From a virus (Duplodnaviria > Heunggongvirae > Uroviricota > Caudoviricetes): 36,584 nt of DNA. Position 1 is the first letter of the stretch. The number at the start of each line of letters is the position of its first letter. Shown here in pieces: positions 21,801 to 28,427 of the stretch. Under the pieces are notes generated by a model. It was given only the letters and a program-made list of their open reading frames with translations. It made no database searches and was not told where the DNA came from. A program made the position numbers and the translations under genes. The DNA is taken from the IMG/VR virus record IMGVR_UViG_2718218304_000003. One strand, written 5' to 3'.

Positions 21801-23567
21801 ATGAACACCACACTGACACCCGCAGATCTCGATCCCCGTCGGCAGGCCATGCTGCTGTACTTTCAGGGATACCGCGTAGCCCGCATTGCTGAAATGCTGG
21901 GCGAGAAAGTTGCAACCGTTCACAGCTGGAAAAAACGCGACAAGTGGGGTGACTATGGGCCGCTGGATCAGATGCAGCTCACCACCGCCGCACGCTATTG
22001 CCAGCTCATTATGAAGGAGCACAAAGAAGGGAAAGATTTCAAAGAAATTGACCTGCTGGCACGCCAGTCGGAGCGCCACGCGCGGATCGGCAAGTTTAAC
22101 AATGGCGGCAACGAAGCCGACTTAAACCCTAACGTCGCCAACCGCAACAAAGGGCCGCGCCGTCAGCCGGAAAAGAATGTTTTCACCGATGAACAGATTG
22201 AGAAGCTGGAAGAAATCTTCCATTCCTCCATGTTCAACTACCAGCGCCACTGGTGGGAAGCTGGAAAAACCAACCGCATCCGTAATCTGCTGAAGTCACG
22301 CCAGATCGGCGCGACCTTTTACTTTGCCCGTGAAGCCCTGATTGACGCCCTGCTTACCGGACGTAACCAGATTTTCCTTTCTGCCAGTAAGGCACAGGCT
22401 CACGTCTTTAAGCAATACATCATCGACTTCGCCAAAGAAGTCGAGGTGGAGCTGAAAGGCGATCCGATGGTGCTTCCTAACGGGGCCACGCTTTACTTCC
22501 TCGGCACCAATGCCCGCACTGCCCAGAGTTATCACGGCAACCTGTATCTGGATGAATATTTCTGGATACCGAAATTCCAGGAGCTGCGCAAAGTGGCTTC
22601 CGGTATGGCTATTCACAAAAAATGGCGACAAACCTATTTTTCCACGCCATCCAGCCTGACACACAGTGCTTATCCGTTCTGGTCTGGTGCGCTGTTCAAC
22701 CGTGGGCGCAACAAAGCCGATAAGGTGGACATCGACCTGTCCCACAGCAATCTGGCCCCCGGCCTGCTGTGCGCAGACGGGCAATACCGCCAGATAGTCA
22801 CCGTGGAAGATGCAGTGCGCGGCGGATGTAACCTTTTCGACCTCGATCAGTTGCGCATGGAGTACAGCCCGGACGAATACCAGAACCTGCTGATGTGCGA
22901 GTTTGTGGACGATCTCGCGTCCGTGTTCCCGCTCAGCGAGCTGCAGGCGTGCATGGTGGACAGTTGGGAAGTCTGGAGCGACTTTCATGCACTGGCCCTG
23001 CGCCCGTTTGGCTGGCGCGAAGTGTGGATCGGTTATGACCCGGCAAAAGGTACGCAAAACGGCGACAGCGCCGGGTGCGTGGTGGTGGCACCGCCAGCCG
23101 TGCCGGGCGGTAAGTTCCGCATTCTTGAGCGTCACCAGTGGCGCGGGATGGACTTCCGCGCCCAGGCTGACGCCATCAAAAAACTGACTGAACAGTACAA
23201 CGTGACATACATCGGTATCGACTCAACCGGCGTCGGTCACGGGGTTTACGAGAACGTGAAAGCGTTTTTTCCTGCCGTCCGGGAGTTTGTCTACAACCCC
23301 AACGTTAAAAACGCCCTGGTACTCAAGGCCTACGACATTATTAGCCACCGCCGCCTGGAGTTTGACGCTGGGCACACCGACATAGCGCAGTCCTTTATGG
23401 CAATCCGTCGCGCCACCACTGCCAGCGGCAACCGCCCGACCTATGAAGCCAGCCGCAGCGAAGAAGCCAGCCACGCCGATCTGGCCTGGGCAACAATGCA
23501 CGCACTGTTTAATGAACCGCTGCAGGGCGAGTCCGCCAATACCAGCAATATTGTGGAGATTTTTTGA
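21801..23567 (+). CDS. P: terminase ATPase (large) subunit gpP
   Basis: 588 aa; near-collinear with P2 P (PADL.PRR, LLY.QGYRVA.IAE.LGEK, TVHSWK.RD, KSRQIGAT.YFA.EAL). Confidence 0.9.
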   Translation: MNTTLTPADLDPRRQAMLLYFQGYRVARIAEMLGEKVATVHSWKKRDKWGDYGPLDQMQLTTAARYCQLIMKEHKEGKDFKEIDLLARQSERHARIGKFNNGGNEADLNPNVANRNKGPRRQPEKNVFTDEQIEKLEEIFHSSMFNYQRHWWEAGKTNRIRNLLKSRQIGATFYFAREALIDALLTGRNQIFLSASKAQAHVFKQYIIDFAKEVEVELKGDPMVLPNGATLYFLGTNARTAQSYHGNLYLDEYFWIPKFQELRKVASGMAIHKKWRQTYFSTPSSLTHSAYPFWSGALFNRGRNKADKVDIDLSHSNLAPGLLCADGQYRQIVTVEDAVRGGCNLFDLDQLRMEYSPDEYQNLLMCEFVDDLASVFPLSELQACMVDSWEVWSDFHALALRPFGWREVWIGYDPAKGTQNGDSAGCVVVAPPAVPGGKFRILERHQWRGMDFRAQADAIKKLTEQYNVTYIGIDSTGVGHGVYENVKAFFPAVREFVYNPNVKNALVLKAYDIISHRRLEFDAGHTDIAQSFMAIRRATTASGNRPTYEASRSEEASHADLAWATMHALFNEPLQGESANTSNIVEIF

Positions 23568-24592
23568 TGGGAAAGAGTAAGAAAAACCGCGCTGCGGCGA
23601 CGAATCAGCTCAAGCATAAAAGCCAAACTTCAGCCGAAGCATTCAGCTTTGGCGATCCCGTTCCTGTTCTGGACCGCCGTGAACTGCTGGACTATGTGGA
23701 ATGCGTACAGATGGATCGCTGGTATGAGCCGCCCGTCAGCTTTGACGGACTGGCACGAACCTTCCGCGCCGCCGTGCATCACAGCTCACCAATTGCGGTG
23801 AAATGCAACATTCTGACCAGTACCTACATCCCTCACCCGCTGCTCAGCCAGCAGGCTTTTTCACGTTTTGTGCAGGACTATCTGGTATTTGGTAACGCCT
23901 ACCTGGAGAAACGCACGAACCGCTTCGGTGAAGTTATCGCCCTTGAGCCTGCTCTGGCAAAATACACCCGACGCGGGTTAGACCTGGATACCTACTGGTT
24001 TGTGCAATACGGTATGACAACCCAGCCGTATCAGTTCACGAAAGGCAGCATTTTTCATCTGATGGAACCTGACATCAACCAGGAGATCTACGGCCTACCA
24101 GGTTATCTTTCTGCCATTCCGTCAGCCCTGCTCAACGAGTCCGCCACGCTGTTCCGCCGGAAGTATTACATTAACGGCAGCCATGCAGGCTTCATCATGT
24201 ACATGACCGATGCCGCGCAGAACCAGGAGGATGTGAACAACCTCCGCAATGCGATGAAAAGCGCCAAAGGCCCTGGCAACTTCCGCAACCTGTTTATGTA
24301 CTCGCCTAACGGCAAAAAGGACGGGCTTCAGATCATCCCGTTGTCAGAAGTCGCGGCGAAGGATGAATTTCTGAACATCAAGAACGTCAGCCGTGATGAC
24401 ATGATGGCGGCACACCGCGTACCGCCTCAGATGATGGGAATTTTGCCGAATAATGTTGGGGGTTTTGGTGATGTGGAGAAGGCGAGCTGCGTCTTCGTAA
24501 GAAATGAACTATTACCACTTCAAAAAAGATTCATGGAAATAAATAGATGGCTTGGTCATGAAATTATAAATTTTGAAATATATACATTATAA
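23564..24592 (+). CDS. Q: portal protein gpQ
   Basis: 342 aa (P2 Q is 344); coupled to P (ATGA overlap); last ~35 codons AT-rich. Confidence 0.9.
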   Translation: MMGKSKKNRAAATNQLKHKSQTSAEAFSFGDPVPVLDRRELLDYVECVQMDRWYEPPVSFDGLARTFRAAVHHSSPIAVKCNILTSTYIPHPLLSQQAFSRFVQDYLVFGNAYLEKRTNRFGEVIALEPALAKYTRRGLDLDTYWFVQYGMTTQPYQFTKGSIFHLMEPDINQEIYGLPGYLSAIPSALLNESATLFRRKYYINGSHAGFIMYMTDAAQNQEDVNNLRNAMKSAKGPGNFRNLFMYSPNGKKDGLQIIPLSEVAAKDEFLNIKNVSRDDMMAAHRVPPQMMGILPNNVGGFGDVEKASCVFVRNELLPLQKRFMEINRWLGHEIINFEIYTL

Positions 24593-24597
24593 AACCC

Positions 24598-24620
24598 AAC
24601 GGCATCACAATGATGCCGTT
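24598..24620. terminator. hairpin between convergent Q and PIN-like gene
   Basis: 10-bp stem AACGGCATCA / TGATGCCGTT with 3-nt loop; T-rich on the minus-strand side. Confidence 0.4.
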
Positions 24621-24635
24621 ATGAACGAATTAATA

Positions 24636-25691
24636 TTAAAAATTATTTTCTTCAATAGAGAACTCAATCCCTCGGGATAACTTATCAATATTCACATCAA
24701 ATGCGATATCTGTTAATTCACCATCCTCGATTTCATACATAACTTCAATTTCAATATCGAAACTAATCTCTTGAACTTCAGTTCGTGTGGTTGTCTCCAT
24801 TGGAATCATTACTTTATCTTCGCTATCCCAATACCCATTATTAAAGTCTGGACCAGAAACAGTAACTTCAAAATCTACAGAAACAGAGAAGGTCGCTAGA
24901 CAATAATTATTGTCAATCTTAATTATTGATGGTTCAAAGTCATCAATATTGACGACTTCAAATGAATCCAATTCAGCGTCTTCCCAAGTTGAAACGTTAT
25001 ATCCATCGGCATCATTGAGTTGGGCAATTACGTCCGCTCTTATGTCTTCACGTTTGCTTTCGATAAACTGCATCAATTTATTACTTAATTCGTTTGTATG
25101 CGTATTGTATTCACCTAGAAACTTATCAAGTGAATCAATTTGATGAAGATTGTTTTTACCATCACAATAATTTTTTAAGTCACTATCCTCAGAAATGATA
25201 TACACATCTTCATCATTAACAAATCGCTCTACCGCAGCTAAAGTGATTGCATCAGGAAACTCACTTTTTTTCTTATTTTGCCCAAATGGTGGTTCTTTGC
25301 CAAAGTATTTATCTAAAACCTCATTAAGATCTATCACTTCTATTGTAGCTAATTTGGCGTGACATCCTTTCAAAAAATCATCAAAAACTTTTTGTGCTGC
25401 TTCGTGAATTTCATGTTCGTTAAATTGCTGAAAAAAACCATGGAGCGGTCCATTATCAATACTATTCAAAAGCCTAGCTTTTCTTTGTACTGTGTTTATA
25501 GCCTGCAGAGCATCCTTTATTGATTCCTCTATTTTACCTTTTACTTCTCTCTCTACAACTGTAGTTGTAATTAAGACTAAATCACCTTTCGCACATAATT
25601 CATGGAAAGCTTTAAATGCTACCCCCTCAAAATGAAGACCAGCCTTTACGTACGTTTGTGTGTCAATAAATACCTTATTTGTTTTAAGCAT
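24636..25691 (-). CDS. PIN-like domain protein with acidic C-terminal domain; candidate accessory/defence gene
   Basis: 351 aa; SD AGGA before ATG; N-terminus has PIN-style motifs (VFIDT ... VVERE ... IISEDSDL); C-terminal ~150 aa very acidic; AT-rich gene. Confidence 0.7.
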   Translation of the reverse strand: MLKTNKVFIDTQTYVKAGLHFEGVAFKAFHELCAKGDLVLITTTVVEREVKGKIEESIKDALQAINTVQRKARLLNSIDNGPLHGFFQQFNEHEIHEAAQKVFDDFLKGCHAKLATIEVIDLNEVLDKYFGKEPPFGQNKKKSEFPDAITLAAVERFVNDEDVYIISEDSDLKNYCDGKNNLHQIDSLDKFLGEYNTHTNELSNKLMQFIESKREDIRADVIAQLNDADGYNVSTWEDAELDSFEVVNIDDFEPSIIKIDNNYCLATFSVSVDFEVTVSGPDFNNGYWDSEDKVMIPMETTTRTEVQEISFDIEIEVMYEIEDGELTDIAFDVNIDKLSRGIEFSIEENNF

Positions 25692-25810
25692 ACTAATCCT
25701 AATAAGTTTTAAGATCCGCTACAATTGTTTATGTTTATTTTTTATCAATAATCATACGTAGTTAAGATTATCCATGTCGAAAAATTAAATCAACTTCAAT
25801 TTATCCTTAA

Positions 25811-25845
25811 GCGCGCGCTCGTATCCCCGCCACGCCTGCCCGCTT
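25811..25845. other. possible cos (cohesive end) region
   Basis: GC-rich block whose reverse complement reads GGCGTGGCGGGGA, resembling the P2/186 cohesive-end sequence as I recall it; expected between old/tin-equivalent genes and Q. Confidence 0.3.
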
Positions 25846-25881
25846 TATGTAGTGGTTTTCATGCAGGTGCATGACATAAGC

Positions 25882-25905
25882 AAAAGCCCGCCAGTTCTGG
25901 CGGGC
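25882..25905 (-). terminator. putative terminator after the two-gene accessory operon
   Basis: Stem GCCCGCC / GGCGGGC (25886-25892 / 25899-25905) followed on the minus strand by UUUU (25882-25885). Confidence 0.4.
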
Positions 25906-26050
25906 CTCAGCAAAAACGATCCTAAAACGATCATGCGGATTCATGCAGCATAGACATGCAAAGCTTGTTAGAACGGTGATTCCCATGTTAAAGGAGGCTT
26001 ACTCTTGTTGAGGTTAAACATCCACAGTAACTCCTGCCAATACGAACACT

Positions 26051-26587
26051 TTATTCATCATAGTGTTCTAATTTCGCTTTTGCTAAACGTCCATGTAAGT
26101 GATTAACAAAATGTAAATTATTCAAAATCAGGCTCATAACGCATTTTAATTGCATCCAGCTAATAAAGTAAATGAAGAAAATACCAATGTATTTAAACAA
26201 GTCTTTATTAGCTTGATAAACAGGTAATGCATAAAACACTGCCTTAACCAAAAAGAAAATTAGAATCCCAGCCATAACACAAGCAGATGTGATTATTGTA
26301 TAAACTAATTTCTCTATTCTTGGTGAGTCATGCTCATTTTTTATATAACTTACATCATCCTTAACAATACTATTCATTGCATTCGGATATAAAAAACCGA
26401 CCCATAAACCGACAATAGTGAATATAGATGCTGAAATATTTATAAGCGCACCTAAAATATCTTTTGCATCATTATAGGAAAAACTTTTGAACGAAAAATA
26501 GCTTATAACGCAGCACAAAACAACAGCAACAAAATTAATCGCCTGCTGTTTTGCAACTGTTATTATCAAACCTTCCGTTTCTGTCAT
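26051..26587 (-). CDS. 4-TM membrane protein, second gene of candidate accessory/defence operon
   Basis: 178 aa with four hydrophobic helices; ATG 1 nt after the stop of the upstream gene; SD GGAAGG inside upstream gene. Confidence 0.75.
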   Translation of the reverse strand: MTETEGLIITVAKQQAINFVAVVLCCVISYFSFKSFSYNDAKDILGALINISASIFTIVGLWVGFLYPNAMNSIVKDDVSYIKNEHDSPRIEKLVYTIITSACVMAGILIFFLVKAVFYALPVYQANKDLFKYIGIFFIYFISWMQLKCVMSLILNNLHFVNHLHGRLAKAKLEHYDE

Positions 26588-26588
26588 A

Positions 26589-27788
26589 TCAACCTTCCGC
26601 TATCTTTTTTGTGGATGCAGCTTCAGATTCTTTAATGGATGCTTCCTCAGCATATTTTACTTCACTAATCAAATCATCACGAATTTTGTTTATTTCATCC
26701 AGTAAAAAACGCGCTGAATAATGCTCAACCCCATCCGAATCTTGAAGAGGAAGTTTAGTCCTGGCTACATAGCTACTGAGCCAAACCGGATTAGCACGAT
26801 CAGCCAGTAAAAAACCCACATCCCATTCAGACTCTTCACCTCTCATTGAGAAGAGATTTCGAAGCTCATCCGATGATGGTGCACCGTCAATTTTAACTTC
26901 AATTTTACGAGGCTGCTCCAAAACAGGAGGTGCCCCAATAAGCTTATTACGCTTTTCTTCACCCACCAGAGATGCTAAAGCTACACTTGTTAGCTTCAAC
27001 AATGGTTGCCTTGTGTCATTTTGGTTTATTACCGTTGTATCCTTTATCAATGTGTGTGTAATTTTATGCCTTAACCTTTCAAAGTTTTCCTCAGCGGCTT
27101 TAAGTTTTGTTTCTTCCAATACAAACTTGAAGATACAGTTTATCTCATTTTTGCCATCTTTATATTGAAACTTAGTATTGTAGACATCCACACAACGACC
27201 AGGGGTCTTAGCTGATTCAAATGTACGCTTAGATTTCGTTCTTTTACCTAACTTACTATTATTATTTACATGCTGAATGAAGTATTGTGCGAAGAGATAA
27301 GTATCAGCGAAAGAATGGGGGAATCTGATTGATGCTATTTTATTCAACTCAGGAATAATCCAGTAATAGCAGGGTTCACCCCAAATTATTTTATCCTCAC
27401 CATGTTCTCTTCCCGCCCTAATGGTTCCTTTACTATCACCACTTACTTTAGAACCGACCTTAATACCATGTATTCCGTTACCGTTCCCCACTTCACGGTA
27501 TAAAACAATTACTGCATCTTTAGTCTGGCTGTCCCTCACAAGGCCTCGACTGTAAACTCGTGTTCGCAGAGGTTGTTCTTCTTTATTCCATGGGAGAGTC
27601 TGCTCAAAATTTTTATCCTTGAGCCACCCTTCTAAATCGTCCAAAACCCCCATAAGATCGCCGAATTTATAATCAAGCTCTTCGGGTTTATTCTTTAAAC
27701 GATAAAACCCACAAGCAGTAATATCAAAGAAGGTGATTGAGCCGTTGTCCACTAAAACTCCTTTTTGCCAAAGCAACACACGATACAT
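26589..27788 (-). CDS. unknown soluble protein, first gene of candidate accessory/defence operon
   Basis: 399-aa ORF, AT-rich, no family I can name; R-x4-H motif (RHKITH); translationally coupled to the membrane gene. Confidence 0.7.
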   Translation of the reverse strand: MYRVLLWQKGVLVDNGSITFFDITACGFYRLKNKPEELDYKFGDLMGVLDDLEGWLKDKNFEQTLPWNKEEQPLRTRVYSRGLVRDSQTKDAVIVLYREVGNGNGIHGIKVGSKVSGDSKGTIRAGREHGEDKIIWGEPCYYWIIPELNKIASIRFPHSFADTYLFAQYFIQHVNNNSKLGKRTKSKRTFESAKTPGRCVDVYNTKFQYKDGKNEINCIFKFVLEETKLKAAEENFERLRHKITHTLIKDTTVINQNDTRQPLLKLTSVALASLVGEEKRNKLIGAPPVLEQPRKIEVKIDGAPSSDELRNLFSMRGEESEWDVGFLLADRANPVWLSSYVARTKLPLQDSDGVEHYSARFLLDEINKIRDDLISEVKYAEEASIKESEAASTKKIAEG

Positions 27789-27994: not shown

Positions 27995-28228
27995 CTAGTG
28001 TAACCAGCTGTCGTCCTCCCAGACCTTCTGCATAATTTTCATCACTTGTTTTCTTTCTTCGTCCAGTTGCAGTCCGGTCAGTTCCACACCGTTAGAGCTA
28101 CCTTTGCGGATACGAATTACCGTTTTGGGATACAGGGGGCGCAGATTGCGGTAAAGCTCGGATTCAAGGGCGTCCAGTGTAGACTGGCTAATCTTCTGCT
28201 CTTTATCGATCATTATTTCAATGCGCAT
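27995..28228 (-). CDS. DinI-like protein (SOS-inducible; Tum-type antirepressor candidate)
   Basis: DinI-family similarity (MRIEI.IDK, LY.KTVIRIRKGSSNGVELTGL, ER, KIMQKVWEDD.W); start moved to MRIEI, preceded by SD GAGGTGA. Confidence 0.75.
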   Translation of the reverse strand: MRIEIMIDKEQKISQSTLDALESELYRNLRPLYPKTVIRIRKGSSNGVELTGLQLDEERKQVMKIMQKVWEDDSWLH

Positions 28229-28238
28229 AAAAGTCACC

Positions 28239-28427
28239 TCAGCTGATGACATCCATTGAGCGGTTGTATTCATGGGTTCTGATTTTTGCCATGAGTTCAT
28301 CTGTCAGTTCAGAAACCCACTGCAGGGCCAGCCCCTTCTCTTCATCACTACACTCACTAGCCGCTACAAGCTTAAGAAAAAAATCAATGCGCTGGAGCTT
28401 CAAAGACTCCAAAAAATAGTCCTGCAT
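28239..28427 (-). CDS. small protein, first gene of LexA-controlled operon
   Basis: 62-aa ORF with strong SD (GGAGGA) directly downstream of the LexA box; stop 10 nt before the DinI-like start. Confidence 0.5.
   Translation of the reverse strand: MQDYFLESLKLQRIDFFLKLVAASECSDEEKGLALQWVSELTDELMAKIRTHEYNRSMDVIS

Follow-up and report, generated by a model that had tools for sequence, protein, structure and literature searches.

A PIN_12 nuclease-like gene with an acidic C-terminal domain between cos and the portal gene of a P2-family prophage, a probable single-gene anti-phage defence of the Cosus family

Results

The PIN gene and its expression signals

The window, i.e. the whole 36,584-nucleotide stretch of DNA that was analysed (IMG/VR record IMGVR_UViG_2718218304_000003), is a 186-type P2-family prophage of E. 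coli, encoding CI, CII, Fil, an integrase and the P2 late genes, and is 100% identical to prophage DNA of E. coli strains D9 and D4. In the list of open reading frames, a PIN_12/acidic-domain coding sequence of 351 aa occupies positions 24636..25691 on the minus strand, with an ATG start and a stop codon at 24636–24638, exactly where a first-pass annotation had placed it. The product is annotated in E. coli D9 under the RefSeq name WP_000920990.1, 'PIN domain-containing protein'. The gene is convergent with the portal gene Q (23564–24592, plus strand) and, as the annotation had also pointed out, strongly AT-rich, with a GC content of 0.32–0.34 compared to 0.52–0.61 in the terminase and portal genes P and Q. 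A 353-aa allele with two additional C-terminal residues and a shifted stop occurs in some E. coli genomes (locus L001, 1731–2792, compared with 1737–2792 in L002), and the database representative (P0001), which is 99% identical to the protein, likewise has 353 aa.

The ribosome-binding site ascribed to the gene was read from the sequence as the Shine–Dalgarno motif AGGA at 25697..25700 (minus strand), 5 nt 5' of the ATG. A sigma-70-like promoter, TCGACA-18 nt-TATGAT (25751..25780, minus strand; 10/12 in a consensus scan), is the top consensus match of the region and is placed between cos and the start of the gene; it is a consensus match only, and promoter-like sites are no more frequent than in shuffled sequence. 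Flanking hairpins had been claimed, and the claim held on one side. A bidirectional terminator-type hairpin at 24598..24620 lies between the stop codons of the convergent Q and PIN genes (dG –14.3/–15.1 kcal/mol, z –4.9/–4.0; 0/200 shuffles fold as well) and matches the P2 terminator tQ in position, according to the P2 annotation. The other hairpin, at 25883–25908 (dG –23.6, z –4.75, with a minus-strand U-tract after it), lies past cos from the PIN gene, and is more plausibly the terminator of the upstream PDC-M18 operon than that of the PIN gene.

A whole-profile PIN_12 match and a VapC-like model

The protein matched the Pfam family PIN_12 (PF16289, formerly DUF4935) with an E-value of 1.6e-25 (90.9 bits; the cut-off is 32), residues 7–171 aligning with profile positions 1–171 of 172, i.e. 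with the whole profile. A second Pfam match, to DUF7339 (E=6e-4), fell under its cut-off and was set aside. The AlphaFold2 model, constructed from a 36-sequence alignment, was confident (pLDDT 88.9, pTM 0.80) and consists of three parts: an alpha/beta PIN part (residues 1–185), three helices (188–227) and an all-beta part (230–344). On the minus strand these correspond to a VapC-like PIN nuclease domain (residues 1–185, 25137..25691), a helical linker (residues 186–229, 25005..25136, with helices 188–199, 202–212 and 214–227 in the AlphaFold2 models) and an all-beta cystatin/NTF2-like C-terminal domain (residues 230–351, 24639..25004). VapC ribonuclease toxins were the top structural neighbours of the model. 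The PIN fold suspected in the first-pass annotation was thus recovered by profile and by structure, and the motifs it had listed in PIN order are all in place: VFIDT at residues 7–11, VVERE at 45–49 and IISEDSDL at 165–172.

A database search returned >120 full-length homologues of ~355 aa with 38–56% identity, from hosts including Pantoea, Aeromonas, Pseudomonas, Vibrio, Salmonella and Halomonas. Among 36 aligned homologues, the invariant residues of the PIN half are D10, E49, K140-K141-K142, E144-F145-P146-D147-A148, S167, D169 and D171. D10 follows beta1, E49 lies in the helix after beta2, D147 is part of the invariant KKKxEFPDA and D169 follows beta4, so that the arrangement of the four invariant acids D10/E49/D147/D169 along the strands is that of canonical PIN domains.

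DUF4935 has been described as a PIN family whose genes are usually monocistronic (Matelska 2017). The description given there (~350 aa, a C-terminal alpha/beta region, usually monocistronic) fits the present protein of 351 aa with its C-terminal helices and beta cone, and the neighbours of the PIN gene are variable or absent, in agreement with a monocistronic gene. Searched against the PDB, both the single sequence and the family profile yielded chance matches only (SLX4, MARK kinases), NCBIfam had no model for the 351-aa protein, and PHROGs, run on the homologue from phage ENT4, had no family for the PIN_12 protein. Judged by profile and model together, the 351-aa protein is a predicted PIN-family nuclease fused to a very acidic domain.

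The acidic domain is confined to one architecture

Residues 230–351 contain 31 D+E and 5 K+R, giving a net charge of –26, and the description of the C-terminus as extremely acidic is borne out by these last 122 residues. The C-terminal charge is kept between –22 and –32 in all 36 homologues despite ~40% identity, and the invariant residues of this half are Y231/N232, W236, G280-P281-D282, E291 and E348.

A phmmer scan of 1.84 billion representative proteins with the C-terminal region returned only 76 clusters, in which nearly all full-length matches are 345–366 aa long and carry the domain at ~187–352; a repetitive 998-aa match was judged spurious. Given essentially one architecture across the 76 clusters, the C-terminal domain is private to the PIN_12/Cosus family, and the idea that it is a sensor module common to other effectors was rejected. 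The viral structure library BFVD gave one true match, a 366-aa 'PIN like domain' protein of an uncultured siphovirus, which is a distant full-length member of the family. In the structure libraries searched, the domain showed no likeness to any known mimic fold. The C-terminal ~150 aa had been called unlike any recognised domain; they are indeed confined to this architecture and have no sequence relative in the PDB.

The PIN gene lies on the Q side of cos

A search with the P2 cos 19-mer allowing ≤3 mismatches found nothing, and the site was instead located by alignment with the P2 ends. The equivalent of the 19-mer lies at 25818..25836 on the minus strand, where the window reads GGCGTGGCGGGGATACGAG and P2 reads GGCGAGGCGGGGAAAGCAC, a difference at 5/19 positions; from the 186 sequence it presumably differs at 4. 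In P2 the corresponding landmarks are cosL at 1–19, tQ at 160–181 and Q at 187–1221, with old and tin between A and cosR, and the P2 right-arm sequence runs on from cos toward higher window coordinates. The PIN gene therefore belongs to the left arm and lies between cos and Q, an interval that in P2 consists of just ~140 bp of non-coding DNA, and cos separates this left-arm slot from a right-arm slot with PDC-M18, DinI and gpA. The same cos motif lies between the PIN gene and DinI/HNH in loci L001 and L002.

A block at 25808–25960 is conserved in 93 P2-like phage records. In P2-like phages, conservation around cos is asymmetric, extending <10 bp beyond the 19-mer on the portal side and ~125 bp on the gpA side, where the conserved block includes the strong minus-strand hairpin with its U-tract at 25883–25908. 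On the Q side, cargo cassettes together with their promoters reach almost up to cos. The ATG of the PIN gene is only 126 bp away from cos, and an adjacent, co-transcribed antitoxin gene of VapB type was not found there: the sole upstream ORF (25807–25986) lies in the cos block and is also conserved in phages without the PIN gene.

The published hotspot is defined as the whole gpA–gpQ interval (Rousset 2022; 2026 NAR study), and four new defence systems have been found in it (Vassallo 2022). Supplementary file 6 of the Rousset 2022 study enters WP_000920990 under 'PIN_12' in several hotspot arrangements, and the hotspot table of that study gave no sign that it was assayed. The 2026 NAR paper on P2/P4 hotspots does not mention PIN or Cosus, and a literature search for DUF4935 returned no functional study. 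Supplementary file 6 of Rousset 2022 also lists 'KAP_NTPase + PIN_12' (WP_113421891 + WP_021513009) and WP_000920989 as further PIN_12 entries of the P2 hotspot, and the P2-like prophages of E. coli may harbour two or more PIN_12 lineages, some of which may have partners.

The PIN gene has the features of hotspot cargo, being located between A and the portal gene Q, variable among related prophages and atypical in composition. The defence hotspot in which it had been suspected to lie can be specified as the Q-proximal half of the published gpA–gpQ P2 hotspot. Like old and tin of P2, the gene belongs to this hotspot, has low GC and its own putative promoter, is non-essential and is swapped between near-identical prophages; old and tin, however, encode unrelated proteins and lie on the gpA side of cos, whereas the PIN gene is on the Q side.

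Distribution in E. coli and exchange of the two slots

Of 5426 complete E. coli genomes, 1281 match the window region but only 36 have the PIN gene, each copy being ≥99% identical. It occurs alone or with at least four or five different right-arm partners (among them HNH, DUF6236, DUF2971 and PDC-M18), because the two slots, with cos between them, exchange independently. PDC-M18 in turn also occurs without the PIN gene, and the match then breaks at query position 1396, beside cos. In practice, the published gpA–gpQ hotspot consists of two independently exchanged slots split by cos.

In the window, the PDC-M18 candidate pair fills the gpA-side slot classically taken by old and tin, both genes being on the minus strand: PDC-M18A (399 aa, 26589–27788; PADLOC E=4.5e-31) and PDC-M18B, a 178-aa multi-pass membrane protein (26051–26587; PADLOC E=2.7e-18). 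PDC-M18 is 'system #4' of Rousset's P4 hotspot list (Domainator paper). ETEC strains carry the pair without the PIN gene. The minus-strand interval 27995–28427, located between the cargo and gpA, contains a DinI-like gene (Pfam DinI, E=1.3e-22; the RefSeq product is shorter, at 77 aa) and a conserved hypothetical gene of 62 aa. Most related prophages have both regardless of their cargo, so these two look like backbone and not hotspot content.

Elsewhere in the E. coli D9 prophage (locus L021, 5746–7560, ~4.4 kb below the window coordinates), an invertase-type recombinase gene lies between the tail sheath and tail fibre genes and adjoins tail-fibre-assembly and gp53-like genes in opposite orientation, which is suggestive of an invertible host-range segment at the P2 Z/fun hotspot position.

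Occupants of the same slot and contexts of the homologues

The cos–Q slot is occupied in all three other P2-like phages inspected, and in a Pantoea prophage. In Fels-2 it holds AbiU (STM2723.1; E=2.7e-112; L019 1735–3432), in Klebsiella phage ST11-VIM1phi8.4 an AbiU/AIPR-like gene (L020 1703–3445) and in E. coli phage 813R9 a gene for a HEPN-type Hypoth_Ymh protein (L018 2270–3421). In the Pantoea prophage, RmrT and RmrA are followed by a 54%-identical PIN_12 gene beside the portal gene (L006 6236–9065). The HTH/Peptidase_M78 gene upstream of this PIN_12 gene was considered as a partner and proved to be RmrA of the separate RmrTA system. The AbiU, AIPR, HEPN and RmrTA genes share with the window gene the cos–Q position and the orientation (convergent with Q, with the promoter next to cos) and are mostly single genes, but they have no sequence or fold relation to PIN_12 and are positional alternatives only. 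It had been stated that P2-family prophages normally have no gene here; this is correct for P2 itself but not for the family, as the filled slots show. The accompanying proposal that the gene is cargo was upheld by its absence from P2, its low frequency in E. coli genomes and the unrelated genes that fill the slot elsewhere.

All distant homologues examined are lone cargo genes on mobile elements. The P. aeruginosa homologue is located beside a Pf filamentous prophage and an AbiTii gene, that of Salmonella on an ICE with AAA_15+HNH, TopB and TraG genes, that of Vibrio in a small islet, and that of Aeromonas in a lambdoid prophage, in the moron slot between the antiterminator and lysis genes. 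In the P2-like Enterobacter phage ENT4 (PV844615), a 41%-identical homologue (L017 3995–5059) is flanked by the R/S tail-completion genes on one side and the V baseplate gene on the other and runs against the late operon, at what we take to be the place where P2 carries the AT-rich orf30.

Comparison with Cosus

Cosus (Brc24/gcu24) is a single-gene mobile-integron cassette with a PIN12 domain that blocks T7, providing complete resistance at high and low MOI (bioRxiv 10.1101/2024.07.02.601719). According to that preprint, protection is lost >1e5-fold with T12A, D14A or D96A, while D153A and D177A are absent from the strongly defective mutants in its text; the protein is a predicted hexamer, the cassette in first position carries an 11% fitness cost, and Cosus under a strong promoter is toxic in P. 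aeruginosa. Its authors consider a possible dual activity that includes interference with genome injection, and also report homologues without attC. Because the gcu24 sequence in the preprint supplement had frameshift errors as machine-read, the clean gene from IncC plasmid pKAZ2 (KR827391; ALG87191.1, 382 aa) was used as the Cosus reference.

Cosus is itself a PIN_12 protein (E=2.4e-36). BLASTP aligned the window protein with it over 235 residues (E=2e-18, 30% identity), and hhalign of Cosus against the family profile gave a probability of 99% over 287 columns, extending into the beta domain. In the joint alignment, the invariant residues common with Cosus are D10, E49, K140, K141, E144, F145, D147, A148, S167 and D169 in the PIN half, and Y231, W236, G280, D282, D289, D292 and E347 in the C-terminal half. 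These shared invariants in both halves place the window protein in the Cosus family as a divergent member with the same architecture. The two have in common a single gene, a full PIN_12 domain, a similar length (382 and 351 aa), the three-part layout and carriage on a mobile element; they differ in belonging to different clades (24–30% identity) and in context, Cosus being an attC integron cassette and the window gene lying between cos and Q of a P2-type prophage. The attC context is probably not a defining feature of Cosus, since homologues without it have been reported by its authors.

At the level of single residues the correspondence is partial. Cosus D14 corresponds to the invariant D10, while T12 pairs with F8 and D96 with a non-conserved residue near Q89; that two of the three critical Cosus residues (T12 and D96) are not conserved would count against the same defence role. 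Cosus D153 and D177 correspond to D147 and D169 of the window protein, and their absence from the strong defects does not fit easily with a PIN mechanism based on the four canonical acids. PADLOC has no model that matches the window protein. The Cosus protein is equally without a match, which indicates that the 2023 library has no model for the family, so the miss says little.

Discussion

With the gene, its fold, its conserved residues, its Cosus homology, its cargo status and its position in the hotspot established, an anti-phage activity of the PIN gene appears most likely. We consider it probable that the gene, optional cargo in the cos-to-portal slot of a 186-type P2-family prophage, acts on its own as an anti-phage defence of the Cosus (PIN_12/DUF4935) family. 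The rivals of this reading are less likely; against them speak the resistance conferred by Cosus, what sister phages carry in the slot, the occurrence of the family outside phages and the dispensability of the gene.

For such a defence, we hypothesize that the gene is probably expressed in the lysogen from its own promoter. The VapC-like PIN domain would be a metal-dependent nuclease with D10, E49, D147 and D169 as active acids, and the neighbouring invariant KKK patch would likely contact substrate phosphates. When an unrelated phage superinfects, the nuclease would cut phage nucleic acid, or perhaps host RNA, and the infection would stop. The acidic NTF2-like domain, rigidly attached in the model, would be the regulatory part, acting in cis as an inhibitor or nucleic-acid mimic that would prevent the nuclease from attacking host substrates until a phage component engages it, or in the assembly of an oligomer. 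A regulatory role of one of these kinds, cis-inhibitor/nucleic-acid mimic or oligomerisation hub, is the most plausible one for the domain. The more specific proposal, that the acidic domain is a built-in mimic seated in the PIN groove as a cis 'antitoxin' and removed by a basic nucleic-acid-binding protein of the invader, seems doubtful.

A variant of the defence reading is abortive infection, in which VapC-like cleavage of host tRNA or rRNA kills the infected cell instead of the invader being destroyed directly. We regard this variant as a tentative possibility: the closest folds are tRNA- and rRNA-cleaving VapC toxins, Cosus is costly or toxic, and Abi-type genes (AbiU) are among the occupants of the same slot, but the protection by Cosus at high MOI argues against its simple form. 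The toxin-like features would also suit a self-contained, fused toxin–antitoxin-like module for addiction or stabilisation, in which the PIN toxin is curbed by its own acidic domain and has no anti-phage role. The best fold matches being VapC toxins, the variable neighbours with no separate antitoxin gene alongside, the fitness cost and toxicity of Cosus, and the constant association of the PIN_12 family with mobile elements are all compatible with such a module. VapC toxins such as M. tuberculosis VapC21 (PDB 5sv2) and Rickettsia VapC2 (3zvk) are 10–18% identical to the window protein, which has long helical inserts, is ~2.6 times larger, carries a ~165-residue linker plus acidic domain fused in cis and has no VapB antitoxin gene beside it. 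An addiction module becomes unlikely in view of the strong phage resistance, dependent on a PIN residue, given by Cosus, the one tested member; of the recognised defence genes that fill the slot in sister phages; and of the little that integrated prophages or silent third-position integron cassettes would gain from it.

Two further readings would have the gene serve the phage directly. Compact highly acidic domains recall DNA-mimic anti-restriction proteins, and a phage-borne gene encoding a compact domain with a net charge of –26 might act against host defences, either through a nuclease that destroys host immune RNAs or signals or through a DNA mimic that blocks restriction-type systems. This is very unlikely, given that homologues also reside on ICEs, integrons and chromosomal islets, where the host would profit from them but an infecting phage would not, that Cosus defends, that the fold is unlike any known mimic in the libraries searched, and that the gene has its own putative promoter and runs against the late operon, as do lysogenic-conversion genes such as old and tin. 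Its direct adjacency to cos, Q and P could point to an accessory nuclease for the phage's own life cycle, in packaging, morphogenesis or host takeover. Such a role is most improbable for a gene that is absent from P2, is carried by only 36 of the 1281 matching E. coli genomes, is replaced by unrelated genes in the same slot and is transcribed against the late operon, and whose family occurs outside phages and shows neither a PHROGs family nor homology to morphogenetic proteins.

It was already known that DUF4935 is a PIN family (2017), that this protein occurs in the hotspot, where it was catalogued in 2022, and that a homologue defends (validated in 2024–25). New here are a divergent, prophage-borne member of the Cosus family and the P2 hotspot as two slots; on its own, the PIN gene is a predictable candidate and not a new kind of system. 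If the mimic reading of the acidic domain were true, PIN_12/Cosus proteins would be one-polypeptide sensor–effector switches, an activation logic not yet described for PIN nucleases. If the gene defends, the Cosus/PIN_12 family would span integron cassettes, prophage hotspots, ICEs and lambdoid moron slots in Gammaproteobacteria, and the window protein would offer a second, divergent clade for work on the mechanism, i.e. on the substrate, the trigger and the acidic domain.
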